The notes under the pieces are model-generated. The model saw only the letters and a program-made list of their open reading frames with translations. It was not told the DNA's origin and ran no database searches. Positions 20,839 through 40,431 of a stretch of 64,000 bases of DNA are shown piece by piece. The position numbers and the translations under genes were made by a program. The DNA comes from a plasmid: sequence record NZ_CP014126.2, one strand, 5' to 3'. How positions within the stretch are numbered: the stretch's first letter is position 1; each line of letters starts with the position of its first letter.

Positions 20839-21443
20839 TGCCTATTCTAAAATTCAGTAGGAAAACTCTTCCCGGTTTATAAAATCTTATCGCTTAATAA
20901 ATTAACTTTGTCCCCGCAACTAGGAACATCGTGATACCCACACTTCACGTAGTTGAATCAGTGGTCAGTGTCAGTAGGTTCGCATTACAAGGTATAGAAC
21001 CAACTACCATAACCGCTAAACAGCTGAATCAGACAGTACCTAAAATAATAACAACGGATGTCATTTTTTAACAGCTTCTTGCCATCTCATGAGTAACAGT
21101 GCTGCTGCTCTTTCGAGCATAGATTTACAAACTAGATATGCACATGTGTTCTGGGCAAGAAGACATAAGGAAGTCGCTTCGCTCTGCTTCTTTTGCCGCT
21201 CCCCGTCCTGCGGCCGGAAACCGGCAGAGGTAAAGTGCCGTGCCCTTACTGTAGCCGGGCGGCTTCCCAAACAAGCGAAGCTGTCGCCGGCCTTCTCACC
21301 CGTTCCCCGCCGTGCGCGGGACATTCAGTCCGCTCCGGCGGCGCGTGCGGCTTCGCGTCCGCCCTTGTTTGCTCAGCTGTTCGCCCGTCTGCGTGTTGGT
21401 CACGGCACCATAGGGGTGCCCCCTGACATTAAGGAGCATAACT

Positions 21444-22354: not shown

Positions 22355-22804
22355 CGGGCAGGCGGTCATTTTATGACCGCCTGCTGTCTGTGCGCTGATT
22401 CAGCCGCCGCTGCGCTTTTGTCCACAGGGTTATAGCCAGGCTATGCACCCGGATTGTGGACAAATGGACATAAGGAAGTTGCTGCGCGCCGCTTTATTCC
22501 GCCATTCGGCGGGACAGGGCAGAAAACCCGGTCCGTGCGTGCTGCGGCCGGTGCCGTGACTTCACTGTAGCCCGATCGCCTTGTGGTCAAGCGCGCCTCC
22601 TTCGCCCGTTCGCACTCCCTCCACCGCACTTACTTCCGTCGCGCTTCCGCTCAGTCTTCGCGTCAGCGCCGTGCGTAAGCACGTCTCCGCTCGCTTGCGC
22701 TGCGGCCTCCTCGTCACGCTTGACCACTGCGTCTCTCCGTCGGGCTGTCATTCAGTCACGGCACAGGCCGGAACTGAGACAACTTTGACTGCGGAGGATT
22801 TCTT

Positions 22805-23661: not shown

Positions 23662-24003
23662 TCATGGAAAGTAGAACCACGCAGTGGATATAAGGTCATT
23701 TGTAATTTCGAAAACGGCAATGCTTTCGAGGGGGGCGGGTGACAGGCCATGGATGAATTCGTGATCAAACACTTTGTTACCCAGCACAGTCCTGGAAATG
23801 AGTTCTGCCCTGAGTTCCGGATTATTAAAACGATTACTTATGTAAAACTCACGCAGCGCTGATTTGCCGATTGTTGAGGGCGTTTCAGCGGGCATACGAT
23901 AGCCTCTGAAATCCTCAGAAAAGCAATTAATAAAGGCATTAATATCGTGTTTATTGTAAGCCTCAAACTGAGCGGCGACGGGACGTGTTACTGACATGTT
24001 CAA
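23662..24003 (-). CDS. SnoaL/NTF2-like small protein
   Basis: 113 aa. FEAYNKHDINAFINCFSEDF...G..E.R.FY pattern typical of NTF2-like (DUF4440/SnoaL) folds. Confidence 0.4.
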   Translation of the reverse strand: MNMSVTRPVAAQFEAYNKHDINAFINCFSEDFRGYRMPAETPSTIGKSALREFYISNRFNNPELRAELISRTVLGNKVFDHEFIHGLSPAPLESIAVFEITNDLISTAWFYFP

Positions 24004-24668
24004 CCCTCTGATTTTGTTTATTTATGCTACTTATTAGCATAAATATTCATTCATTTGAAGGTTTCTGAAATCCTTTCTTCGATGTATCGCCGATTAATCA
24101 TAAAAAGCCCGTTATCCCGGGCGTCCTGTCGGCTGTCATGCTTCGCACAGAGCCGGCAGGCCGTCTCTGCCCGGCCCCGTTCCGGGGCAGCGGGTTTCCA
24201 TCCTGACGCAACACCTTCCGCTCACAGCAGCCGTTCCGGCTGCGCCGCTCAGTCACGCCGTAAACGGCGCTCCATGCATCCCGCCACCACACACGGCGGG
24301 ATGTAAGGGGCAACGCTGTTTCGCGCCCGCGCGTCACACCGTTGCGGCGGGTTCCTGCTTTCCTCATGGGTTGTTTCGCCCGTCTGAGTCCTTTCGCCGG
24401 GGCTGAGACAAGCACAAACCGCCTGGCTGTCCAGGGACGGCTGAAGCCTCTCGCCGGAAAATTTTTTATGTAGCCAAAAATTTTTCCGCTCGCTCCCGGA
24501 CACCTGCGCCGGCCCGTGCTCGTTGCGCCCTTTGCGGCGAACGGCTCTCAAACGGGTGAAGGTTACAACCAGGGGAGCAAGCAGCAGTTCCCCGCAAAAC
24601 GTCAAGACCGCGGCCCCGGCAACTCAACGGGTGATGGTTTTAAGGGCAAACACAATCAGGAGATTTCA

Positions 24669-28542: not shown

Positions 28543-29010
28543 GGACATGGCCCCCTTCGGCTCCCCGGCGTTGCCGGGTCGTCAGTCCCACTCCGCTAAC
28601 CGGCAAAGCCGGTAAGCTCCGCCGAACCCCTTCGGGTTTCGGACATAGGGCCTGATGGCTCAGGTCAAAGGCTGCAACCGGCTTTCGCCGGTGCTTCAAC
28701 CGGGCGCGCTGCGCCCTTTAAAGGCGTCACGCCGTTCCGTCGTGACGACTGTGTTCATGCTCATCCCTGTGCTGTCACCCTTTTCCGGCTGGTACGGAGC
28801 GGAGGGCTTTTCGTAGCACAGTCATCCGTTCGCCCACTAGGGGTACGCTTCGCCGTTCCTCGCCCGTTCGCACTCGCCACAAAGACGGCTCGCTTGCGCT
28901 GCGGCCTGCGGTGACGCCCCGTGTTCGCCCGTCTGCCGGTGCTACTTATGCCCTTCGCCGCTCCATACCAACCGAAACAGGGTTTTAGTAACCATCAGAG
29001 GAAAACCAGC
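28543..29010 (+). repeat. leading-region ~0.5 kb repeat, copy A (candidate ssDNA promoter / Frpo-ssi-like element) with the fused 5' end of the downstream gene
   Basis: >95% identical to 31477-31942 and 33466-33937. The identity continues through the first 17 codons (MNTQNVKTAATKTTETW) of the downstream ORF. The sequence is GC-rich with many short inverted repeats. Confidence 0.6.
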
Positions 29011-29418
29011 ATGAACACACAGAACGTCAAAACCGCCGCAACCAAAACCACCGAAACCTGGGCTGAAGGTCAAAACACTAATTACTACCTGGGAGATCGT
29101 TTTACCAGCGCAGAGGGGTACGCCGAAGAAGTGCGGAATTACTGGCTGAATCGTGAGGCGGCGGCGGTAAAAGCGCCTGCGGAGATCGACGTACACCGCT
29201 TTCACGATGCGCTGGGGACACTCTATCCGCTGAACTGGGCATCCAGTGATAGCGGGAACTGTGAAACGTTCATGTTCGCAGAAATGTATTGCGGTGAGGT
29301 AACGGACATCTACGCCCGTATCGGGGTGCGTTACTTCCGGCTGCGTAATTATAACCACATGACCCACGCTCAAATCCTAACGAGCGTTAAGGAGGCATTT
29401 GAACTGAACCAGAAATGA
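29011..29418 (+). CDS. leading-region hypothetical protein, paralogue A (shared N-terminus MNTQNVKTAATKTTETW)
   Basis: ATG at 29011 is preceded by AGAGGA. The N-terminal 17 aa are identical to the ORFs at 31943 and 33938, then the sequences diverge. Confidence 0.55.
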   Translation: MNTQNVKTAATKTTETWAEGQNTNYYLGDRFTSAEGYAEEVRNYWLNREAAAVKAPAEIDVHRFHDALGTLYPLNWASSDSGNCETFMFAEMYCGEVTDIYARIGVRYFRLRNYNHMTHAQILTSVKEAFELNQK

Positions 29419-29507
29419 AAAAAGCAGGCATAAGCCTGCTCATTCACCGCCGGAACCACGCGACCAACGAACGTTCCGGCGCTGTCAAACTTAACGGAGA
29501 TAAACCC

Positions 29508-29654
29508 ATGCAATTCGACCCGCAAATCGTGTCACACGCACAGGCATTTGTAAATGCCCTTCGCAAAGGGAAGCGCGCGCGCGTCCCGGCTATTCGCCTG
29601 GAGCACTGGCAGCAGTTTATGACGCTGGTTTATGCCGGACTCGGCCTCGCGTGA
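29508..29654 (+). CDS. small protein, paralogue of 34431-34568 (MxFDxQIV...)
   Basis: GGAGA RBS then ATG; 48 aa. The paralogue sits in the equivalent position after copy C. Confidence 0.35.
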   Translation: MQFDPQIVSHAQAFVNALRKGKRARVPAIRLEHWQQFMTLVYAGLGLA

Positions 29655-29702
29655 TGTGAAAAAGCCGCCCCTGATCGGGGCGGCTGTAAAAGGAATCGAT
29701 TC

Positions 29703-30521
29703 ATGTCACAGATAAGTTTTGCGGAATTTTTTGACCAGGTACAGGACGCGGCACCGGTTGTTCAGCATCCTTTACCTGCGCTGCCGGTAAAACTGCCTGC
29801 GGTTTCCCCACCCGTGTTAAGCCTTGCAGCGGCGAGAAGACAGTTTATCAGCGTCTTCCATGAGACAGCGTATAACCTGCGCCGCTGGGAGGTGTTCAGC
29901 GATTTCATTATCCTGGCGGCCAGTGAACTGGATATCGCCCGGATCAGAACGCCGGAAAGCATTGAACGCTGCCGGAAAATCAGCGAACGCTACAGCGCCG
30001 CCGACATGCGCAATATGCACGAACTGTTCGCGCTGATGGTATGTGCGCTTCAGGCTCAGTTTCATGATTTTCTGGGCGCTGTTTTTATGGAGCTGGAGCT
30101 GGGCGACGATCGCCAGGGGCAATATTTTACGCCTTACAATGTCCAGTCAATGATGGCACGCCTGCTGATGCCCGGCGTGATTGATACCATCCGGCGGGAA
30201 GGGATGTTTACCTTGTCAGAGCCGACCTGCGGAGCCGGGGGAATGGTTATCGCTTACGCAGAGTGCCTGATTGAAGCTGGGCTTAACCCTTCCGTTCAGA
30301 TGTTCGTCAGTTGTATCGATATTGATCCTGTCGCGGCGGATATGGCGTTTATACAGCTTTCCCTGCTGGGCATTGCCGCTGAGGTTGTCACCGGTAATAC
30401 ACTGACGCTGGAGTTTAACCGGGTACGCTATACACCGGCTTACTATCTCAACGATTTCGAAGAACGCCTTGAAAGTCAGCGCCGGATCAAGGCTATGCTG
30501 GCTTTTATCAGGGCAATGTAG
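29703..30521 (+). CDS. N6-adenine-methylase-like protein with a degenerate catalytic motif (likely non-catalytic)
   Basis: GQYFTP (motif X) and EPTCGAGGM (motif I, AdoMet loop) are present. Where gamma-class enzymes carry (N/D)PP(F/Y), the sequence is VVTGNTLTLEF. No target-recognition domain. Confidence 0.5.
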   Translation: MSQISFAEFFDQVQDAAPVVQHPLPALPVKLPAVSPPVLSLAAARRQFISVFHETAYNLRRWEVFSDFIILAASELDIARIRTPESIERCRKISERYSAADMRNMHELFALMVCALQAQFHDFLGAVFMELELGDDRQGQYFTPYNVQSMMARLLMPGVIDTIRREGMFTLSEPTCGAGGMVIAYAECLIEAGLNPSVQMFVSCIDIDPVAADMAFIQLSLLGIAAEVVTGNTLTLEFNRVRYTPAYYLNDFEERLESQRRIKAMLAFIRAM

Positions 30522-30636
30522 GCCCGGACAAAACAGCAGGGAACAGAAAGGCAGGGAAGCCGCAATTACGGGTTTGTATGGGGTGCATGAGTCATGCAGA
30601 AATTGCACAATATACGGAATTTCGTATAATGAGGAG

Positions 30637-30972
30637 ATGATGCGTAAGAAAATCAGTTTTATTGACAGCAGTCTTGAGGATTTACGAGCTTTCCCGGAAG
30701 AGGCCCGCACCGCGTCAGGGTATCAGCTTGACCTGGTGCAGCAGGGACTGGAACCGGACGACTGGAAGCCATTTGCTTCAGTCGGTCAGGGAGCACGTGA
30801 AATACGCATCCGGGGTAATGACGGCATTTTCCGGGTCATGTATGTCGCCAAATTTGAAGAGGCCGTGTATGTGCTGCACTGCTTCCAGAAAAAGACACAG
30901 AAGACCAGCCAGAGTGACGTGGAACTTGCCCGGAATCGTTATCGCAGACTGGCAGAGGAGCGTAAAAAATGA
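30637..30972 (+). CDS. HigB/RelE-superfamily toxin-like protein (toxin-first operon)
   Basis: ~110 aa. FIDSSLEDLRAFPEEAR...IRIRGNDGIFRVMYV...VYVLHCFQKKTQKT is typical of HigB-2/Gp49-like toxins. It overlaps a downstream HTH gene. Confidence 0.55.
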   Translation: MMRKKISFIDSSLEDLRAFPEEARTASGYQLDLVQQGLEPDDWKPFASVGQGAREIRIRGNDGIFRVMYVAKFEEAVYVLHCFQKKTQKTSQSDVELARNRYRRLAEERKK

Positions 30973-31259
30973 ATATTCAGACTTTTGATAATGTGTGGGA
31001 CGCGATCAGCGAAACGCCAGAGCAGGCGGAAAATATGAAACTTCGCGCCGAGTTAGTGAGCCGCCTGAATAGCTGGATTAAACGTAATGGCCTGAATCAG
31101 GCCACTGCCGCCGCTGCGCTGGGCGTTTCACAGCCAAGAGTGTCAGAGCTGGCAGGAGGCAAAATTAACTGCTTCTCGATTGATAAGCTGGTCAGCATGA
31201 TGGCGCATGCCGGACTGCACATAACCAGTATTGAGATAAGCGAACCAGAGGCAGCTTGA
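30969..31259 (+). CDS. HTH XRE-family antitoxin-like protein (HigA-like)
   Basis: NGLNQATAAAALGVSQPRVSELAGGKINCFSIDKLVSMMAHAG is an HTH_XRE pattern. Start overlaps the upstream stop (AAATGA). Confidence 0.6.
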   Translation: MNIQTFDNVWDAISETPEQAENMKLRAELVSRLNSWIKRNGLNQATAAAALGVSQPRVSELAGGKINCFSIDKLVSMMAHAGLHITSIEISEPEAA

Positions 31260-31417
31260 GCTGCCTTTTTGCCCCGCGCAAACTGCCAGGGCGGTAGCCC
31301 CTGCGGGGCAGGATAAACCCGGTGCTGACGCACCGGCTATACCCTTTCACCTGACCGTCTTCATCCCTTCCCATCTGATGCTGATAGCTTGCCGTTTCTG
31401 ATAACCGGGCTGATTCT

Positions 31418-31474
31418 GCCACTGCCACTGCCACTGCCACTGCCACTGCCACTGCCACTGCCACTGCCACTGCC
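31418..31474. repeat. hexanucleotide microsatellite (GCCACT)x9.5
   Basis: Perfect tandem array read directly from the sequence. It replaces the spacer present upstream of repeat copies C and D. Confidence 0.9.
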
Positions 31475-31476
31475 GG

Positions 31477-31942
31477 GACATGGCCACCTTCGGCTCCCCG
31501 GCGTTGCCGGGTCGTCAGTCCCACTCCGCTAAGCGGCAAGCCGCTAAGCTCCGCCGAACCCCTCCGGGTTTCGGACATAGGGCCTGATGGCTGAGGTCAA
31601 AGGCTGCAACCGGCTATCGCCGGTGCTTCAACCGGGCGCGCTGCGCCCTTTAAAGGCGTCACGCCGTTCCGTCGTGACGACTGTGTTCATGCTCATCCCT
31701 GTGCTGTCACCCTTTTCCGGCTGGTACGGAGCGGAGGGCTTTTCGTAGCACAGTCATCCGTTCGCCCACTAGGGGTACGCTTCGCCGTTCCTCGCCCGTT
31801 CGCACTCGCCACAAAGACGGCTCGCTTGCGCTGCGGCCTGCGGTGACGCCCCGTGTTCGCCCGTCTGCCGGTGCTACTTCTGCCCTTCGCCGCTCCATAC
31901 CAACCGAAACAGGGTTTTAGTAACCATCAGAGGAGAACCAGC
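31477..31942 (+). repeat. leading-region ~0.5 kb repeat, copy B
   Basis: See copy A. Confidence 0.6.
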
Positions 31943-32875
31943 ATGAACACACAGAACGTCAAAACCGCCGCAACCAAAACCACCGAAACCTGGGTAAAAC
32001 AAAACTTCGACGTGCATCTGTCGATGCGCACAAATCGCCGGGTTAGTCTGGCGAAGCTGGAAGGCGATCTGATGAAGCACCGTGCCATGCAGAAACTGGG
32101 CGTTGATACTGAAGAGCTTTTCGATGACCTGCAGCTGGCAGTTGCGTGCATAACCACAATGATTGACAGGGGTGACATCGTCACACCGTCCGGATATGAG
32201 CTGGCGTCATCCGTGCGGTCTCTGGCTATCGAACTGTATCCTGAAGCGTGGGAGGCCGTGGATGGTCCTGATCTGCCGGAACTGGCATGGCTGCAGGCCG
32301 ATGCTCCCGGATGTCGTGAGGCTGAGCGTCAGTTATATATTGAGAATGCCCGTCCTTTTGGCGTCACCGTATACGGCTGCATGGAGTTCCATGAGGATGA
32401 TCGAAATCTTGGCACGTACTGGCAGGATGGGGCAGTTTGCCTGGGCCGTGCTGATTCCATCACGGAGGCAATGGAGTTGCTGGTTCAGGCTGATCTGAAC
32501 AATGACTGGCAACTGTGCGACTACGATGCACTAAGCTTTCAGCCGAAGGTCGTCACGATCACCGACCTTGCACATCGAGTTGTGCTGCGCGGCAATGCCA
32601 GTAAGCTGGAATGGACTGTACCTGAAACCGATCCGGCGGAACTTGAACGGATCGCTGAACAGAAAGCGGCACTGCTGAGCCAGGCTGCATTCGAGTCAGG
32701 CTGGGATAACTTTGAGACTGCCCGCATATTACGTAGCGAGGCTAACTTGTTGGAACTGGGCACCGTTCACGCCGTATGGCTGAACGATCCGAAAGTGGCA
32801 AAAGCCTTAAGAGAATACCGGCATCCGTCAAAACGCCTTGATGAAACAGAACTCATGGAAAATCTGGAGTTTTAG
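31943..32875 (+). CDS. leading-region hypothetical protein, paralogue B (310 aa; shared 17-aa N-terminus)
   Basis: ATG at 31943. Diverges after MNTQNVKTAATKTTETW. Acidic. Confidence 0.55.
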   Translation: MNTQNVKTAATKTTETWVKQNFDVHLSMRTNRRVSLAKLEGDLMKHRAMQKLGVDTEELFDDLQLAVACITTMIDRGDIVTPSGYELASSVRSLAIELYPEAWEAVDGPDLPELAWLQADAPGCREAERQLYIENARPFGVTVYGCMEFHEDDRNLGTYWQDGAVCLGRADSITEAMELLVQADLNNDWQLCDYDALSFQPKVVTITDLAHRVVLRGNASKLEWTVPETDPAELERIAEQKAALLSQAAFESGWDNFETARILRSEANLLELGTVHAVWLNDPKVAKALREYRHPSKRLDETELMENLEF

Positions 32876-32945
32876 ACCGTTGCATGACTCGTGCTGCCTG
32901 GAATGCACTGAGCACCAGGTGGCGCGAAGGTAACAGGAGCTACCC

Positions 32946-33266
32946 ATGGTAAATAACACTGCACCCGATGTAAGACTGCCTGCGGCATTTTCGCAGCCTG
33001 AATCATTGAAAATCGCTGACATCGGTTGTCTGGCCAGTCTCATCCAGCAGCAGGATAGCTACGATGGTGCAGCCATCGAATCTGCCGCAGCGGCCGTTAA
33101 CATGTTCGCCAGCTGCACGGGACTGGACAGTGAAAATGACCTGGCTGCAACAGCGATTACCGATTTGCTCACAAACCTCATGCACCTATGTGAAGTGATT
33201 GATCTGCCGTTCTGTGAGTTTCTGAGTCGCGCCGGTGAACATTTCGAAAATGAAACCGGCAGCTGA
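32946..33266 (+). CDS. hypothetical acidic small protein
   Basis: 106-aa ORF preceded by GGAG. Confidence 0.3.
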   Translation: MVNNTAPDVRLPAAFSQPESLKIADIGCLASLIQQQDSYDGAAIESAAAAVNMFASCTGLDSENDLAATAITDLLTNLMHLCEVIDLPFCEFLSRAGEHFENETGS

Positions 33267-33295
33267 ATCCGTGCCGTGCAGGGCACAAAGCCTGC

Positions 33296-33465
33296 AGGCC
33301 TTTCAGGCCAGGCAAAACCCGGTGCTGACGCACCGGCTCTCCCCCTCCGCGTTCTCTGTAGTCTGCCAGTGATGCCGGGTGTTTCACTGCTGTCCGGATG
33401 GTGTCGCCGGTTATGCAGGCTCAGATGCAATTGCTGCCTTTACTGACTAAACATCAACTTCAGGG
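33296..33465. repeat. second leading-region repeat family (~170 bp), copy 1; contains a perfect hairpin CCGGTGC-TGAC-GCACCGG
   Basis: Near-identical to 35205-35380. A partial copy at 31311-31345 shares aacccggtgctgacgcaccggct. Confidence 0.6.
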
Positions 33466-33937
33466 GCCGGGACATGGCCACCTTCGGCTCCCCGGCGTTG
33501 CCGGGTCGTCAGTCCCACTCCGCTAACCGGCAAAGCCGGTAAGCTCCGCCGAACCCCTCCGGGTTTCGGACATAGGGCCTGATGGCTGAGGTCAAAGGCT
33601 GCAACCGGCTATCGCCGGTGCTTCAACCGGGCGCGCTGCGCCCTTTAAGGGCGTCACGCCGTTCCGTCGTGACGACTGTGTTCATGCTCATCCCTGTGCT
33701 GTCACCCTTTTCCGGCTGGTACGGAGCGGAGGGCTTTTCGTAGCACAGTCATCCGTTCGCCCACTAGGGGTACGCTTCGCCGTTCCTCGCCCGTTCGCAC
33801 TCGCCACAAAGACGGCTCGCTTGCGCTGCGGCCTGCGGTGACGCCCCGTGTTCGCCCGTCTGCCGGTGCTACTTCTGCCCTTCGCCGCTCCATACCAACC
33901 GAAACAGGGTTTTAGTAACCATCAGAGGAGAACCAGC
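33466..33937 (+). repeat. leading-region ~0.5 kb repeat, copy C
   Basis: See copy A. Confidence 0.6.
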
Positions 33938-34327
33938 ATGAACACACAGAACGTCAAAACCGCCGCAACCAAAACCACCGAAACCTGGGCTGAAGGGCAA
34001 AACATCAACGGCTTGGATCCGGCACTGGCTCAGAGCCTGGATTATCTCAGGTTATTGAAGTCGGAGAGCATGACCGAGGAAGAACGTTTTGAACTTCTCA
34101 CAGGCACTCTGATGAATATGGCTGAAGAGGTTTGCAAGACGGTTACTGACTGGTCGCGCCCGCGCCCGATGATCCCGCTGGCATCATTTAAAGCGTGGAT
34201 TGCAGCGGCACACATTGCGCACGGCTATCCAGACGGAATAGGCGATGCAGCATGGGGATACGCAAGCAGTGAACTGGCTTTGATTCTCAAAGCCGGATAC
34301 GCCATGCATAAAGCGGATATTGCCTGA
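33938..34327 (+). CDS. leading-region hypothetical protein, paralogue C (shared 17-aa N-terminus)
   Basis: ATG at 33938; same fused N-terminus as the other two paralogues. Confidence 0.55.
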   Translation: MNTQNVKTAATKTTETWAEGQNINGLDPALAQSLDYLRLLKSESMTEEERFELLTGTLMNMAEEVCKTVTDWSRPRPMIPLASFKAWIAAAHIAHGYPDGIGDAAWGYASSELALILKAGYAMHKADIA

Positions 34328-34430
34328 TGAGAGAAGTGCAGATGTAAAAAAAGCAGAGTTTCCTCTGCTTTCTTCACCGCCGGTATTTACGAGATACCGG
34401 CAACATCAAAACCAGAATCTGGAGAGATAT

Positions 34431-34568
34431 ATGATTTTTGACATGCAAATCGTCGCACATGCCATCGCGGTTGTAAACGCAATGCGCAGCGGCCAGCTGG
34501 CACATTTAGCGGCAATGGTGTTTTCACAGTGGATGCAGGTAGCGCGTAAGGTGGAGAAGCAGCCATGA
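34431..34568 (+). CDS. small protein, paralogue of 29508-29654
   Basis: GGAGAG RBS. MIFDMQIVAHAIAVVNAMRSGQ vs MQFDPQIVSHAQAFVNALRKGK. Confidence 0.35.
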   Translation: MIFDMQIVAHAIAVVNAMRSGQLAHLAAMVFSQWMQVARKVEKQP

Positions 34569-35134
34569 GCCAGATTATTAAGCATCCACATTCCACAGCA
34601 TTCACCAGCCTGATTCAGCAGGACGATATCACCAGAGTGATGGGCAAATACTGCCTTATTCGCCTGGATAATGGTGCAGAGTCCTTCTGGCACAATGGCC
34701 ATTATGTCTGCGAGGCAAACGGTGCATACGGTGAAACGGGTGTGTCAGACATTGCCAGGCTGACCGCACGGGCGGGTGGTCATTCGTTACGGTGCATCGA
34801 GCTGCCGGTGCCTGATGGAGAGTGGTGCTGGGGTGATATAGCGGAAACACTGGCTCGCAGTGCCCTGAGTGAAACGGTACGGGCCTCCTGCATCGTGACG
34901 GGCTGCATAACAGCGCAGGGCAGGGGGGTTCACTTCTGCAATCATCCGCTGCTGAGCGGCGACAACTCGAATCTGTGGTTTCCAATTGGCAACAATGAAG
35001 ACTGGTTTGCGGCTGTGGAACGGATTCTGATCATGAACGGTTTAGCCGAAAATCTCACCAGTCTTTCACCGCTTCGTGACGGACCAGATTACATGGACTG
35101 GAAAGCGACCTATAACAGGAAGGTCATAATCTAG
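34565..35134 (+). CDS. hypothetical protein (Cys/His-containing, 189 aa)
   Basis: ORF overlapping the upstream stop; no recognisable family. Confidence 0.4.
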   Translation: MSQIIKHPHSTAFTSLIQQDDITRVMGKYCLIRLDNGAESFWHNGHYVCEANGAYGETGVSDIARLTARAGGHSLRCIELPVPDGEWCWGDIAETLARSALSETVRASCIVTGCITAQGRGVHFCNHPLLSGDNSNLWFPIGNNEDWFAAVERILIMNGLAENLTSLSPLRDGPDYMDWKATYNRKVII

Positions 35135-35204
35135 GGAGCTAAGGCCGGTTTACACCGGCCATTCTGTCCATGAGCGGGGTGCTGAACCGCGAAAAAAACC
35201 AGCA

Positions 35205-35380
35205 GGCCTTACAGGCCAGGCAAAACCCGGTGCTGACGCACCGGCTCTCCCCCTCCGCGTTCTCTGTAGTCTGCCAGTGATGCCGGGTGTTTCACTGCTG
35301 TCCGGATGGTGTCGCCGGTTATGCAGGCTCAGATGCAATTGCTGCCTTTACTGACTAAACATCAACTTCAGGGGCCGGGA
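35205..35380. repeat. second leading-region repeat family, copy 2
   Basis: See 33296-33465. Confidence 0.6.
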
Positions 35381-35520
35381 CATGGCCACCTTCGGCTCCC
35401 CGGCGTTGCCGGGTCGTCAGTCCCACTCCGCTAACCGGCAAAGCCGGTAAGCTCCGCCGAACCCCTTCGGGTTTCGGACATAGGGCCTGATGGCTGAGGT
35501 CAAGGGCTGCAACCGGCTGT
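35381..35520 (+). repeat. 5' ~140 bp of the 0.5 kb leading-region repeat (copy D, diverges afterwards)
   Basis: Identical to the first ~140 bp of copies A-C, then unrelated GC-rich sequence up to the next gene. Confidence 0.5.
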
Positions 35521-35825
35521 CGCCGGTGCGTTCACTGGCCCCGAAATCGGGGCCGCTGAGGACCGGACCGGCAAAGGGCCGCCGTCCGGTGCTGTGTCCT
35601 GTTCATCTCCCGCGTTCTGTTTCGTTTCCTGAATTCCTCGCCGTGCAGAAATTTGGCACACGGGCGCCTTCGCACAAGGGACGCAAGCTAAACGGCTGCA
35701 CCCGGTCCCTTCGGGCTGCGGCTTTGCCGTTTCCCTCTGCGCTCAGCCTGATCCCCGTGCGCCCGTTCTGCCCTCACGGCGAGGAACTCAGAGAAACATC
35801 GAATAAACCACACGGGAGACACAAC

Positions 35826-36404
35826 ATGTCAAAGCTGAACGTCAACACCCCGGCTTCAGAATCTAAAGAATCATCTTTTTTAACGGCAAAACCATCAGAA
35901 GAAATCAGCTACGAAGCTATCCGTCGTGCATTACGTCGCAGTCTATTTTTCAAGGATCATCCGCAGTTCAATGTGAACACCGCGGCGCTGCGTAGCGATT
36001 TTGCTATGAATCTGGAGTATCTGACGGCGGCAACCTTTACGCGCGAAGAGGCAGATTTTAATACGGGAAAATTCCGCTCAGGAATCGAGATGCTGCTGAT
36101 TAACGCGCATGAAAAACTGCAGATCACGGTTTTTGTTTATGCTCCAGCGGCAGGCTCTGCACCGGAAATCTATGAAACCCGGATCGTGCATTCAGCTAAT
36201 CCGATTGGTGAAGAAGAATATGCGGAAAATACCGAATACCAGACTACTAACGTTTACAAAGCCACAGGTGAGCTGAATGTTGCGGCGCTTGATCTGTTCT
36301 GGTCTGAGCATGAAGGGCTGATTAAATATGCGAAGCAAAACCTGCCCCGGACTAACGAATACAGCCCATTCTGCCACTGGCAATTTTCGCACCTGAGAGG
36401 ATGA
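35826..36404 (+). CDS. hypothetical leading-region protein (192 aa)
   Basis: ATG at 35826 after GGGAGA. The upstream part of track ORF 35490-36404 lies in the repeat and is unlikely to be coding. Confidence 0.45.
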   Translation: MSKLNVNTPASESKESSFLTAKPSEEISYEAIRRALRRSLFFKDHPQFNVNTAALRSDFAMNLEYLTAATFTREEADFNTGKFRSGIEMLLINAHEKLQITVFVYAPAAGSAPEIYETRIVHSANPIGEEEYAENTEYQTTNVYKATGELNVAALDLFWSEHEGLIKYAKQNLPRTNEYSPFCHWQFSHLRG

Positions 36405-37989: not shown

Positions 37990-38740
37990 CGTTACAGACG
38001 CGCACGTTGCGCTGACCGGCTGGTGACGAACCTTGTCAGGGATATAAAGAATTCAGCAGGATAGCTTTATTTATCAAGCCGCTCTCCGGGTGTAAGATTT
38101 CATCACACCCCACGCAAGATTTCATCTTGCAGTTTTTTTATTTTAAAACATAGAGTTATCCTGTTTTTAATGGAGTTTTTTGTTTATATAAAATTAAAAG
38201 TGTGCTAATTAACACACTTTACAGTGCCGTATTGTGTGTCATGATGGTGCCTTATTGTGTGTTGTTATGGTGCTGGATTGTGTGTTGTGACAGTGCCGCC
38301 TTGTGTGGTAATTAGGCACTGCAAAAGGCACTGTAGGGTGTGCTAATTATCGCTAGTCATTAAAATCAATAACCTAGATATATGCTACGCCATGCTAGTG
38401 CCTGATTAACACACATCAAAACAGCCCACAGTGCCGGATTGGCACACCTAAAATAGAGTAGTAATGCCTGCTCACCACATCTTAGTTACTCAGGTTTTAT
38501 CATTTCTTATGGCCTGGAAAGCTATATAGTGCTGAATTAACACACATTTTTGATGCGTCGCCTGCTATATCAGATCTCATGAAAAAATAATTACCTAGTG
38601 CTGGATTGACACACACTCATTCAAAGAGAAATAATTAAAACAGCTGAGCTACACCTTCTACATATTTCTCCAGAAAAGATGCTCTGGTTTCTTATTCGCT
38701 TAAATTTTTCAGAATGCGATCTTATTTTCGCCGCTACGGA
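37990..38740. promoter_or_regulatory. oriT: oriT region: F-type nic sequence plus arrays of putative relaxosome-protein binding sites
   Basis: The minus strand reads TTGCGTGGGGTGTGATGA at 38101-38118 (compare F nic GCGTGGGGTGT|GGTG). A-tract bend at 38133-38150. Palindrome GTGTGCTAATTAACACAC at 38200-38217. Four tandem 23-bp repeats (gtgccNNattgtgtgt...) at 38223-38312. Further AGTGCYNGATTRACACAC copies at ~38388, 38425, 38529 and 38597. traM lies immediately downstream. Confidence 0.7.
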
Positions 38741-39142: not shown

Positions 39143-39172
39143 GCCGGGCGTTTGCCCGGCAATTTTTAATTT
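39143..39172. terminator. bidirectional terminator gccgggcg-tt-tgcccggc plus T-run
   Basis: Hairpin between convergent traM and the histidine kinase gene. Confidence 0.65.
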
Positions 39173-40431
39173 ACGCGCGAAACAGGGATTCTCAGCGTGA
39201 ACGTAGTACCCTTTCCGATTTCAGAGTGTGCCTTTATTGAACCGCTCATGGTTTTTATATAACTGTTCACAATAGTAAGTCCGAGTCCAAGACCTTGCCT
39301 GGTTTCTGATTCAGCACCTTGATTAAAAGGCTTGTAGAGGAACTTTAACTTACGCATGTCAAAGCCACATCCATTATCACTTACTCTTATCATTAAAATT
39401 CTATCGGTCAGTCTGAGTCTTACATCTATTAATCCATTACTGGTGTTTTTATTGGAATTATCTATCAGGTTGTGAATAATCGATATGAGCTTTTGCTTAT
39501 CAGTTCGAATCAGTGTTTCAGGCAGGTTTACATGAAACTCTAATGTGTTTGTTGTTTCATTGAAGAGTGACATGCTTGATTCGATTATTTCATTGAGCCT
39601 GAAAGTTGTCACATTTAAACCAACGTTTCCGATTTCAATCTTCGAGAACTCAAGGATCTCTTTTGTTTGCTGGAAGAGTTTATTTGAGTGTAATGAGATT
39701 TTTGCAAGATATTTCTGAGTTGCGAGCATGCCCTCTTGGGGATCTATCATATCGCATGCGAGTTGAATTTTTTGGATTGAACCAGACATTTCGTGATAAA
39801 TTGCCGAGATAAAGATATTCTTACCTTTTATGGCTGCTTTAAGTTTGGAGATGTGCATCCATAATACGATCATTAGAAGAAAAAGAAGGAATATACTTGC
39901 GAGCGCAGTTGTTTCTGCACTCATTGAGTTATCGCTTATTATCTTTTTAACTCTCTCAAAGTTTTTAATCTGAATACGATAGATGATTTGTTGGAGGTCA
40001 ATCAAAGCCGGTTGCATTTCATCCATTTTACTTAGCAGCATTGCTTTTGTTGATGAAGGGTTTTCCGGATTATAGAGTGCGCCTAAATCAGCGCTTTGTT
40101 TTTCAATATTACTTAGAGCTGATATGAAATCTGGCTCGTAATAAAACGTGCCGCTATAATTATATTTATTGCGAAGGATTAGTAGTTTTGAGTCAAAGAC
40201 GGATTTACTGATCAGGAAAGCATTCGGATTTTCAGTTTTATAAACTGCAGTTCTGGTACGTTCGAAAGCAAGAAATAATATTTCTGCAGTAGAATAGTTA
40301 TCAAGAGTAGGAGCTATACTTCTGTACTGATTTTTTACTTCATTGAACTTCATAACAGTTAGATAGACGGAACCTCCAAAAAGCAGAGTCAGTACCAGGC
40401 CAAAAAATACCGCTGTTTTTTTACCTTTCAT
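39166..40431 (-). CDS. sensor histidine kinase with a ~160-aa periplasmic domain
   Basis: TM1 VFFGLVLTLLFGGSVYLTV; TM2 ALASIFLLFLLMIVLWM. H-box ISAIYHEMSGSIQKI; N-box IHNLIDNSNKNT; G1 DNGCGFD; G2 GLGLGLTI. AT-rich. Confidence 0.8.
   Translation of the reverse strand: MKGKKTAVFFGLVLTLLFGGSVYLTVMKFNEVKNQYRSIAPTLDNYSTAEILFLAFERTRTAVYKTENPNAFLISKSVFDSKLLILRNKYNYSGTFYYEPDFISALSNIEKQSADLGALYNPENPSSTKAMLLSKMDEMQPALIDLQQIIYRIQIKNFERVKKIISDNSMSAETTALASIFLLFLLMIVLWMHISKLKAAIKGKNIFISAIYHEMSGSIQKIQLACDMIDPQEGMLATQKYLAKISLHSNKLFQQTKEILEFSKIEIGNVGLNVTTFRLNEIIESSMSLFNETTNTLEFHVNLPETLIRTDKQKLISIIHNLIDNSNKNTSNGLIDVRLRLTDRILMIRVSDNGCGFDMRKLKFLYKPFNQGAESETRQGLGLGLTIVNSYIKTMSGSIKAHSEIGKGTTFTLRIPVSRVN

Follow-up and report, generated by a model that had tools for sequence, protein, structure and literature searches.

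The closest described counterparts of the locus analysed here are Frpo1 and Frpo2 of F (ssiD; class 1, ssp1a/ssp1b) and ssi1-3 of ColIb-P9, likewise repeated stem-loops of the transferred strand (T-strand) in the leading region, which occur in two or three copies of ~330 nt that are ~90% identical, stand each before an operon templated by the T-strand, and give early, transient expression from single-stranded DNA (ssDNA). A second group, the class 2/3 promoters, includes the pESBL klcA/ardA and M.EcoGIX promoters as well as Frpo3/ssp2 and ssp3 of F. Start sites of class 1-3 promoters were mapped via 5' RACE, and the promoters are needed for early expression (PMC12672017; PMC9849209); in class 2/3 hairpins transcription begins within the stem (PMC12672017). 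Samuel et al. (2024) described further candidates, of which Frpo*1, *4 and *5-7 (insect-gut metagenome, Salmonella enterica) match parts of the repeat described below and were graded as low-certainty owing to poor -35/-10 elements.

The stretch of DNA that we analysed (the window; 64,000 nucleotides of the plasmid record NZ_CP014126.2) is the leading region of an F-like conjugative plasmid of Pantoea agglomerans and has the same layout as that of F. A match to the F nic region lies on the minus strand at 38118-38101 (cttgcgtggggtgt/gatg), so that the minus strand is the T-strand and genes on the plus strand are templated by it, as the sequence-only reading had held. Homologous cassettes point in one common direction in all 11 of the other MOBF/F-like plasmid loci fetched, and traM/SLT lies downstream in 9 of these 11. 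Repeat search and MAFFT alignment located three complete copies on the plus strand: copy A at 28543-29062 (ATG at 29011; gene A ends at 29418), copy B at 31475-31994 (ATG at 31943; gene B, 31943-32875, 310 aa) and copy C at 33470-33989 (ATG at 33938; gene C, 33938-34327, 129 aa). They are 98-99% identical through the Shine-Dalgarno sequence (SD; AGAGGA at 28997-29002 in copy A), the ATG and the first 17 codons (MNTQNVKTAATKTTETW), past which the ORFs of 135, 310 and 129 aa diverge, just as first described; five extra residues (AEGQN) are common to ORFs A and C. Each repeat consists of two parts, an upstream module X of ~190 nt with covarying hairpins (28543-28730 in copy A, 31476-31662 in B, 33470-33657 in C; plus strand) and a ~310-nt T-strand hairpin (28733-29042, ~31665-31974 and ~33660-33969, respectively; minus strand).

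As in F, where flmAB takes this place, a toxin-antitoxin locus (HigBA-like here) lies between the copies. However, the triplicated repeat has no significant BLAST match to F Frpo except for 29 nt (AACGTCAAAACCGCSGC), which are non-coding in F and coding in the repeat. Further, a gap of ~30 nt separates the F hairpins from the ATG, while our stem takes in the SD and the ATG along with ~11 codons, and the apical half is of another type than in F Frpo1/2 and ColIb-P9 ssi1-3; a Salmonella/Klebsiella type is a chimera that combines this basal stem with an apical hairpin resembling class 1. Judged from its sequence, the true F-type Frpo homologue of the window is a different, previously missed class 1 (F Frpo/ssiD-type) element at 24304-24637 on the minus strand (70% identity to F ssiD/Frpo, 77% to S. 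marcescens Frpo'1), which precedes the DUF905/ParB-like/psiB/psiA operon, whose genes were assigned via Pfam. The other structured leaders pointed out earlier, before the methylase and ardA, are also real and could be matched to published elements: a class 3/Frpo*3-like hairpin before the N6/N4 methylase (21166-21423, minus strand; 82% identity to Frpo*3, and fold) and a class 2-like hairpin upstream of ardA (22545-22775, minus strand), which has TTGACC-N15-TACAGT on the T-strand and class 2/3-type motifs (alignment A4), its BLAST match not being significant. The triplicated hairpins resemble class 2/3 hairpins in being GC-rich and very stable, in the position of the -10 bubble and in the motifs AGCCGCAGC, GAACGGGYGA, CCCTTG and GCTA of the apical, promoter-bearing stem, which are common to our hairpin, F Frpo3/ssp2 and the class 2/3-like leaders of the window. 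They differ in the spacing from -35 to -10 (18 nt here, 15 there), in the -10 itself (TACGAA/C with an upstream TG here, TAAGAT or TACAGT there) and in the basal stem, which here reaches through the translation start.

Module X is conserved and structured, with three local hairpins and a long-range helix in copy A. The R1 covariance model found 91 X copies (87 distinct) across 76 sources, in which 24 of 34 pairs show compensatory changes and 95.7% of cells pair, a level reached by 0 of 500 shuffles; because the compared sequences are related, these and the following shuffle tests overstate significance. BLAST with X gave matches in 4571 plasmids, and a search of Rfam with X returned no family match. 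Matches to the Frpo* candidates are spread over both parts of the repeat, namely 28570-28642 (88% identity to Frpo*4), 28728-28823 (73-85% to Frpo*5/7) and 28843-28920 (70% to Frpo*1), and Frpo*5 and *6 also have the ribosome-site region in common with it. Those entries are fixed 400-nt upstream windows that end at the ATG and mix X, part of the hairpin and the motif termed M below; what is new with respect to that study is the modular build, together with covariation, strand bias and a coding start inside the hairpin.

As had been suggested as a check, we folded the minus strand of the repeat as ssDNA. The T-strand of copy A forms a long imperfect hairpin of -76.4 kcal/mol (z -5.89; 0 of 100 shuffles), compared with -59.0 kcal/mol (z -2.33) for the plus strand. 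The RNAalifold consensus again favours the T-strand (-51.7, against -40.1 for the plus strand, where the fold is weaker and the mid-stem is lost). The Y core (28790-28970) has 46 pairs, 10 of them with compensatory changes, and pairing holds in 94.6% of cells; none of 500 shuffles reached these values. A candidate extended -10 (T-strand 5'-TGcTACGAA-3'; 28810-28818, minus strand) lies on the 3' arm at the edge of an internal bubble; the pattern GTGCTAC....AGCCCTCC is kept throughout the Y-type hairpins as well as in the Salmonella/Klebsiella Frpo*5 type, and aligns with the GCTAAGAT / GCTACAGT element of class 2/3-type hairpins (alignment A4). As for the -35/-10-like hexamers that this check was to look for, the window has a degenerate -35 position with CTAGTG (TTGCGG in relatives), TACGAA is without the usual T at -7, and a simple consensus scan of the hairpin found no promoter.

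The outer stem consists of the complement of the stretch from the SD to codon 11, the ATG included. Its 3' arm includes M (28743-28761, minus strand), an inverted repeat of the start region that pairs with the SD, the ATG and codons 2-7 in the MFE fold, and P (28778-28790, minus strand), which lengthens the basal stem by pairing with the complement of the 5'-UTR motif U (AACCGAAACAGGG; 28970-28982, plus strand) and lies 175-230 nt upstream of the ATG across 26 records, with one outlier at 368. For 53 start-region substitutions M shows a compensating change, and for 4 it does not. A direct repeat of U, the motif T (ACCGAAACCTGGG; 29050-29062, plus strand), stands at the 3' end of the 17-codon tag, and U and T co-vary across plasmids (11.9/20 identity within a record vs. 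10.8 with shuffled partners; 0/2000).

These features could also be read at the RNA level, as long structured 5' leaders of transcripts from farther-upstream promoters, with the M helix serving as a translational switch or for stability. The stem pairs are mostly Watson-Crick and would form in plus-sense read-through RNA too, so that it is wobble counts and energies that carry the strand argument; moreover, the AUG is predicted to be fully paired in such RNA (P(unpaired) of 0.00 in RNA from 28700 vs. 0.39 in RNA from 28945), and X carries two near-invariant G:U pairs that are possible solely on the plus strand. However, wobbles in the hairpin favour the T-strand, at 24 vs. 3 cells in the Y core and 35 vs. 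5 in U:P (where 268 cells are Watson-Crick and 30 mismatched), as do the consensus folds given above and, in 73 of 75 records, the stability of the duplex between M and the start region. In addition, no sigma-70-type duplex promoter was found upstream of genes A-D, and initiation inside the stem of the related class 2/3 hairpins (PMC12672017) points away from a leader transcribed from afar. Counting against the promoter model, on the other hand, part of the start region is still paired even with the internal start, and relative to synonymous recodings the ribosome site gains accessibility modestly (3rd-14th percentile). Taken together, we regard a role exerted mainly in RNA as unlikely.

It is likewise improbable, in our judgement, that the repeats serve mainly in DNA processing, as ssi priming sites or as roadblocks that delay duplex conversion, with gene expression being secondary. 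Frpo transcripts do prime DNA synthesis, at ssp2 of F the synthesis of the complementary strand stalls until UvrD steps in, several hairpins follow one another in X as they do in known ssi signals, and the stability of the GC-rich stems would suit a roadblock. Such a function is nevertheless compatible with promoter activity, since the F elements do both, and each cassette is set at a fixed distance before a first cistron with a strong SD. The compensatory changes in the stem, further, preserve the ATG and the reading frame, neither of which a pure replication signal needs.

The SD, ATG and 17-codon tag (28997-29061 in gene A, plus strand; identical in A, B and C) occur on at least 18 unrelated families of ORF bodies, and gene-B homologues of as low as 35% identity retain the tag. 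Because the start region is built into the stem of the hairpin, unrelated genes carry one N-terminal peptide, and we take a structural constraint on the promoter DNA, perhaps together with control at the ribosome site, to be the best explanation of the shared N-terminus. The sequence-only reading had put forward a common target in translation initiation or regulation; of this, the possible ribosome-site control is kept, given that the SD, the ATG and ~11 codons are base-paired in the outer stem, and a peptide with a target of its own is not. A functional peptide, be it a degradation tag for transient leading proteins or a targeting/translocation signal, with the nucleotide conservation being secondary, would account for the recognisable pattern MNT[QH]NV..TA..ES.E.W on so many unrelated proteins and would suit the known transience of leading proteins (PMC9849209). 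We find it very unlikely, as amino-acid changes are common (E/K, R/T, S/T/P, and W to R, G, C or Y by single-base steps) where synonymous ones are nearly absent (ACC 73/73, GCC 70/71, GAA 62/64), and substitutions in codons 2-5 are mirrored in the non-coding partner M. Moreover, the homologous segment is non-coding in F Frpo1/2 (a weak match, E 0.008), and residues 1-12 are predicted to be disordered (pLDDT below 50).

The repeat is a mosaic whose modules X, Y and start region recombine independently of each other, which had not been noticed before. Copy D (35378-35534, plus strand) has module X only, over 157 nt at 96.8% identity, and is thus partial as stated earlier, if slightly longer than the 140 bp then given; R1 finds it at 35382-35507 (132 bits), and 35405-35607 is 77% identical to Frpo*4. 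Past 35534 it runs into a different T-strand hairpin (35592-35835, minus strand; -83.4 kcal/mol, z -5.94), which likewise takes in the SD and, at 35826, the ATG of gene D (35826-36404, plus strand; MSKLNVNTPASESKES, a diverged tag) and in which TGcCAAATT, read from the sequence, is the candidate extended -10. Cassettes of the same hairpin type are 84-100% identical within one plasmid (98-99% in this window) and 65-81% identical between distantly related plasmids, and we propose that gene conversion may maintain the alikeness of the three copies. The second repeat reported before copies C and D (33287-33470 and 35195-35378, plus strand; 98.4% identity) measures 184 nt, where ~170 bp had been claimed, and bears a double hairpin (GGCCTTTCAGGCC / CCGGTGCTGACGCACCGG) after the stop codon of the upstream operon. 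Its CCGGTGC-TGAC-GCACCGG hairpin (33319-33336 and 35227-35244) precedes copy B as well (31319-31336); many related plasmids have kept the hairpin pair, which is terminator-like solely on the minus strand. The small ORFs at 29508-29654 and ~34431-34568 are indeed paralogous (50% identity over 36 aa, E 3e-11). Finally, although several near-identical copies lie inside 7 kb and further ones in related plasmids, a non-autonomous mobile element (MITE/IS remnant) or functionless neutral segmental duplication is hardly credible, as a search of the repeats found no terminal inverted repeats of at least 40 nt, target duplications or transposase, the modules recombine independently, the copies always have a single orientation and lie in leading regions, and strong covariation indicates selection on structure.

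Cumulatively, orientation, T-strand stability, covariation, G:T wobbles, shared motifs and the lack of IS/MITE features support, on computational grounds, the single-strand promoter idea, and the likeliest function of copies A, B and C is that of hairpin promoters acting on incoming ssDNA. We consider it probable that each repeat is a portable 'zygotic expression cassette' of the F-like leading region, with the early, transient expression from ssDNA described for F and ColIb-P9, which would work as follows. The T-strand would enter the recipient single-stranded and its ~310 nt (28733-29042 in copy A) would fold into the long imperfect hairpin, imitating duplex promoter DNA, with the -35-like site and the extended -10-like TGcTACGAA at the internal bubble on the 3' arm. 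Host RNA polymerase would initiate within the stem and copy the 5' arm outward to the gene, giving an mRNA leader of ~60-70 nt. Behind the polymerase, the displaced 3' arm may re-anneal in place of a non-template strand, so that the ribosome site of the nascent RNA would be left free. Transcripts started upstream (read-through or vegetative) would include M, which may pair with the AUG and hide it, in keeping with the unpaired probabilities given above, so that translation would be tied to initiation at the single-strand promoter. Duplex conversion would abolish the hairpin and switch the cassette off. As the basal stem takes in the complement of the translation start, from the 5' UTR through the SD and the ATG to about codon 11, this coding stretch would be constrained as promoter structure, and any gene placed under such a promoter would acquire the same disordered N-terminal tag.

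The layout of the window is that of the F leading region, and the window matched Pantoea agglomerans plasmids (96.5% to NZ_CP143413.1). The plus strand carries, in order, genes for a methylase, ArdA, DUF905, a ParB-like protein, PsiB, PsiA, several unknowns and DUF932, followed by a minus-strand lytic transglycosylase gene, oriT and a traM-like gene. Since the F nic motif, cttgcgtggggtgt|gatg, was located on the minus strand (38118-38101), the minus strand is transferred 5′ to 3′ toward lower coordinates and is the template of the plus-strand genes. All genes served by the ~0.5-kb repeats are on the plus strand, in agreement with the orientation expected of single-strand promoters in the sequence-only reading, and the cassettes lie 2-10 kb from oriT. 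The same cassette orientation was observed in all 11 related plasmid loci compared, which belong to MOBF-relaxase or F-like plasmids, with traM/SLT downstream in nine of them. Only two genes of the leading-region array run on the minus strand, a SnoaL-like gene (23662-24003) in its interior and the transglycosylase gene on the side of oriT. Between nic and the traM-like gene lies a 23-bp tandem repeat (38224-38307; 3.7 copies, 78% matches), probably the relaxosome-protein binding sites of oriT. The place directly after the traM-like gene, occupied by traJ in F, is taken here by a sensor histidine kinase gene (39166-40431, minus strand), and the arrangement of kinase, oxidoreductase, GNAT and response regulator is annotated likewise in F-like plasmids of P. 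ananatis and Erwinia billingiae.

Repeats A, B and C (28543-29062, 31475-31994 and 33470-33989) were 98-99% identical over about 520 nt, including the SD, the ATG and the first 17 codons of the genes behind them, which we refer to as the tag. When the minus-strand single-stranded DNA, that is, the T-strand, was folded, the long, stable and imperfect stem-loop anticipated from the sequence was indeed obtained (-76.4 kcal/mol, z -5.9), as compared with -59.0 and z -2.3 for the plus strand. Ten distinct sequences of the hairpin core (Y, 28790-28970 in copy A), related to one another and read as T-strand, shared a consensus stem of 46 pairs, 10 of which showed compensatory changes, with 94.6% of the cells able to pair; neither shuffles nor register shifts came anywhere near the observed values. 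The T-strand was favoured, with 24 G:T wobbles on the assumption of T-strand folding vs. three on that of plus-strand folding, and a consensus fold energy of -51.7 on the T-strand vs. -40.1 on the plus strand, where the mid-stem was lost. The partial copy D at 35378, which does share the start of the repeat, albeit over 157 nt and not 140 nt as first read, is followed by a different hairpin that likewise encloses its own SD and ATG.

The kind of element is already known, namely the single-stranded promoters of plasmid leading regions. In F, early and transient expression from ssDNA depends on both Frpo1 and Frpo2, which are ~90% identical (PMC9849209), while Wen et al. described three classes of single-stranded promoter in pESBL and F, with start sites determined by 5′ RACE (PMC12672017). 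According to Shaw et al. and Fraikin et al., F Frpo3/ssp2 additionally holds up synthesis of the complementary strand until UvrD intervenes, and a catalogue of homologues and candidates, including the low-certainty 'Frpo*' elements, was compiled by Samuel et al. (PMC11541004). BLAST of the published promoter sequences against the window placed an F-type class 1 element at 24304-24637, outside the triplicated repeat, and showed the methylase leader to be 82% identical to Frpo*3. The repeat itself turned out to be a patchwork, in which 28570-28642 resembles Frpo*4 (88%), 28728-28823 resembles Frpo*5/7 and 28843-28920 resembles Frpo*1, the last with 70% identity over 88 nt. Although BLAST of the repeat gave no direct significant match to F Frpo3, which corresponds to Frpo'4, Frpo*1 itself matches F Frpo3. 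With class 1 (F Frpo/ssiD, ColIb-P9 ssi1-3) the repeat does not share homology to the ~330-nt elements, the match being limited to 29 nt (E 0.008). A relationship to class 2/3 (pESBL klcA/ardA, M.EcoGIX, F ssp2/ssp3) is possible; in alignment, blocks of motifs are conserved and the overall build is alike, and the spacing and the basal stem are different. Taken together, the interpretation of the repeats as single-strand promoters is supported, their activity being predicted.

Alignment of Y with F Frpo3, the ardA and methylase leaders of the window, Frpo'4 and Frpo*1 revealed common blocks, AGCCGCAGC in the 5′ arm and GAACGGGYGA, CCCTTG and GCTA in the 3′ arm, and in the class 2/3-type 3′ arm -35-like (TTGnnn) and -10-like (TAnnnT) hexamers are readable at CCCTTG and GCTA. 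A scan for consensus promoters found nothing in the repeat hairpin. The candidate elements in Y are TTGCGG and TGcTACGAA/C, separated by 18 nt, and the former is degenerate in the window (CTAGTG). The extended -10-like TGcTACGAA has no T at -7 and lies at a conserved bubble, where class 2/3-type hairpins have their -10 in the alignment; its TA is paired and the remainder is in the bubble, resembling a fork-junction promoter. We infer this -35/-10 assignment from sequence, and it should be read as putative. Neither TTGACG, in the complement of the tag, nor TTGACC, in the upstream module X, is accompanied by a usable -10, and a duplex promoter on the minus strand based on either of them was rejected for this reason.

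The hairpin is not confined to the leader, for the T-strand from 29075 to 28730 folds as one hairpin in which the complement of SD, ATG and codons 1-11 pairs with 28743-28761, the segment we call M. A motif in the 5′ UTR (U, 28970-28982) is complementary to a partner in the 3′ arm (P, 28778-28790), and across 26 records this helix, which covaries between sequence types, comprised 268 Watson-Crick cells and 35 wobbles permitted only on the T-strand vs. five permitted only on the plus strand. Between the start region and M, 53 substitutions were matched and four unmatched (40 records, relaxed start pattern); among these substitutions were changes of the base immediately preceding the ATG and, in codon 2, of AAC to CAC or AAA. 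In 73 of 75 records, the T-strand gave the more stable start-region:M duplex (-30.1 vs. -24.5 kcal/mol, with shuffled controls at -19.2).

The extended stem bears on why unrelated genes begin alike. An exact search with ATGAACACACANAACGTCAA, one genome per species, returned 63 stretches, nearly all Enterobacterales plasmid-like contigs, and these together with the plasmid loci yielded 82 distinct tagged ORFs; the 74 complete ones of at least 60 aa formed 18 groups whose bodies are unrelated. A ParB-like protein, a methyltransferase, gene D and F YgeA begin with diverged versions of the tag, and the MNTQNV start is kept in gene-B homologues at 35% identity. A tblastn search with the 22-aa tag gave no matches, probably owing to low-complexity masking, and the tag was therefore searched for at the DNA level. 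Within the tag hardly any synonymous variation occurs and amino-acid changes are frequent, residues 1-12 of gene B are disordered in the AlphaFold model, and a segment of the tag weakly matches a non-coding part of F Frpo1/2 (E 0.008). The spread, synonymous constancy and disorder of the tag and its non-coding match in F fit a constraint at the nucleotide level, with the peptide as a passenger. In this plasmid the tag also contains a 15-nt tandem duplication (CAAAACCGCCGCAAC / CAAAACCACCGAAAC; 29028-29058, the same in B and C), which accounts for the stretch TAATKTTE.

Other explanations of the shared start were considered as well, with CsrA, Hfq and ClpX-degron readings of the tag among them. 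A hairpin limited to 28798-28958, with a peptide- or mRNA-level cause for the tag, was replaced because the full T-strand fold puts the start region in the stem; when the tag was tested as a translational enhancer, support was weak (3rd-14th percentile among synonymous recodings). A three-element switch in the mRNA, with AUCUU pairing with U or with T, a direct repeat of U at the 3′ end of the tag, was rejected because it agrees with the Klebsiella type only and not with the AAACAT type. T and U co-vary between plasmids, and in principle T might pair with P in place of U.

Ahead of M and Y lies X (28543-28730), a multi-hairpin module. Its covariance model found 91 copies in the sequences compared and had compensatory changes in 24 of 34 pairs, the long-range helix included, and the first ~100-225 nt of X were found by BLAST in 4571 plasmids. 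The wobble test for X did not separate the strands (33 vs. 45 variable cells), and two invariant G:U pairs favour the plus strand. X may insulate the upstream operon or form a structure at its 3′ end, may be a site of priming, or may be an accessory promoter element; a primase- or PriA-dependent priming signal (G4-type or phiX-type ssi) was considered because X is a hairpin array. When the repeat was cut into X, M, Y and the translation start region, these four segments appeared in varying combinations across the 11 loci. In a Klebsiella IncFII plasmid, X is found ahead of class 1 elements fronting ssb and DUF932, and also ahead of an Frpo*5-type hairpin. Y exists without the tag, for example fronting radC in P. 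deleyi, and the tag is also found behind other hairpins.

A known IS or MITE family can be dismissed as the source of the repeats, which have no inverted repeats of at least 40 nt, differ in their left flanks without duplication and occur in one orientation only. Sequence similarity among the cassettes of one plasmid far exceeds that between cassettes of distantly related plasmids, which indicates gene conversion. Between copies A and B, a HigBA-like toxin-antitoxin pair (RelE/ParE-type, HigB-like toxin and XRE antitoxin; about 30640-31259) recalls flmAB between Frpo1 and Frpo2 of F (PMC9849209); in the way proposed for flmAB, it might protect the A-B interval against deletion by repeat recombination. 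A perfect tandem repeat of the hexanucleotide CTGCCA (9.8 copies, 31416-31474) abuts the start of X in copy B, and plasmids of P. deleyi, P. ananatis and P. dispersa have other hexamer runs (CAACAG, CCACTG-like) at the same place. The second repeat bearing a perfect hairpin was found as described, at 184 nt and 98% identity. After the stop codon of each upstream operon stands a conserved hairpin pair (GCCCCTGCGGGGC or GGCCTTTCAGGCC, then CCGGTGCTGACGCACCGG; 31296-31344, 33296-33344 and 35204-35252), which recurs in many related plasmids and has the appearance of an intrinsic terminator on the minus strand only. The Rfam scan gave only three chance-level matches (E 0.08-0.9), all far below gathering scores, among them a weak 'DUF3085 RNA' match overlapping the hairpin pair (E 0.35) and AS-pc01, the antisense RNA of plasmid pHK01, whose match (29419-29513, minus strand; E 0.08) scored 30 bits where the gathering score is 79 and lies in the interval from gene A to the first small ORF.

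The two small ORFs downstream of the modules (29508-29654 and about 34431-34568; 45-48 aa, MxFDxQIV.HA.A.VNA.R.G) are paralogues, as had been noticed. The first precedes an N6-adenine methylase gene, as does its 48-aa Klebsiella homologue WP_004152750.1; the name 'succinate dehydrogenase flavoprotein subunit' given to such ORFs in some records looks like a mis-annotation. Neither the small ORFs nor genes A, B, C and D had a Pfam or NCBIfam match. Gene B (31943-32875, 310 aa) is a member of a Pantoea-centred family, and its confident AlphaFold model (mean pLDDT 83.5) had no fold match in the PDB.

In RNA begun upstream at 28700 the AUG was fully paired, whereas in RNA begun at the predicted internal site it was partly free. 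This contrast suggests that only transcripts begun at the putative single-strand promoter would be translated well; we further suggest that the 3′ arm could displace the nascent RNA from its template. A scheme uniting these features, which we put forward tentatively as possible but somewhat short of probable, has one stretch of DNA read three ways. On the T-strand, the complement of the start region would form the basal stem of the single-stranded promoter; in mRNA the same stretch would be the ribosome-binding site and start; and in protein it would be a disordered N-terminal tag, handed to every gene that the cassette captures. The 3′ arm would have two roles, serving as surrogate non-template strand, which would leave the ribosome site free in RNA transcribed from ssDNA, and, as RNA, as an anti-start sequence silencing any transcript with a start other than the single-strand promoter. 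Two gates, one on transcription and one on translation, would confine expression to the minutes that follow entry of the DNA, with X as a further widespread (>4500 plasmids) structured part of the cassette system, e.g. an insulator, a 3′-end structure or a priming site. In the published work searched there was no description of a start-enclosing hairpin imposing a shared N-terminus, nor of the X module.

Mapped start sites represent three classes only, all from E. coli plasmids, and the cassette family is common in plasmids of Pantoea, Erwinia, Mixta, Serratia and Klebsiella. For a family rated low-certainty so far, covariation and strand-specific wobbles provide new comparative evidence of T-strand folding, together with a mosaic architecture with module swapping. 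The family also offers a concrete cause for the same ~20 first residues on dozens of unrelated leading-region ORFs, which matters for protein-family clustering and for the annotation of 'hypothetical' leading genes, and ideas on how ssDNA-templated RNA may become translatable and testable ideas on how expression may stay off after conversion to duplex DNA. Which genes of a plasmid are expressed in the first minutes after conjugative entry is determined by single-stranded promoters, and since the genes so controlled include anti-restriction, anti-SOS and methylase genes, these promoters influence the establishment of resistance plasmids in new hosts.
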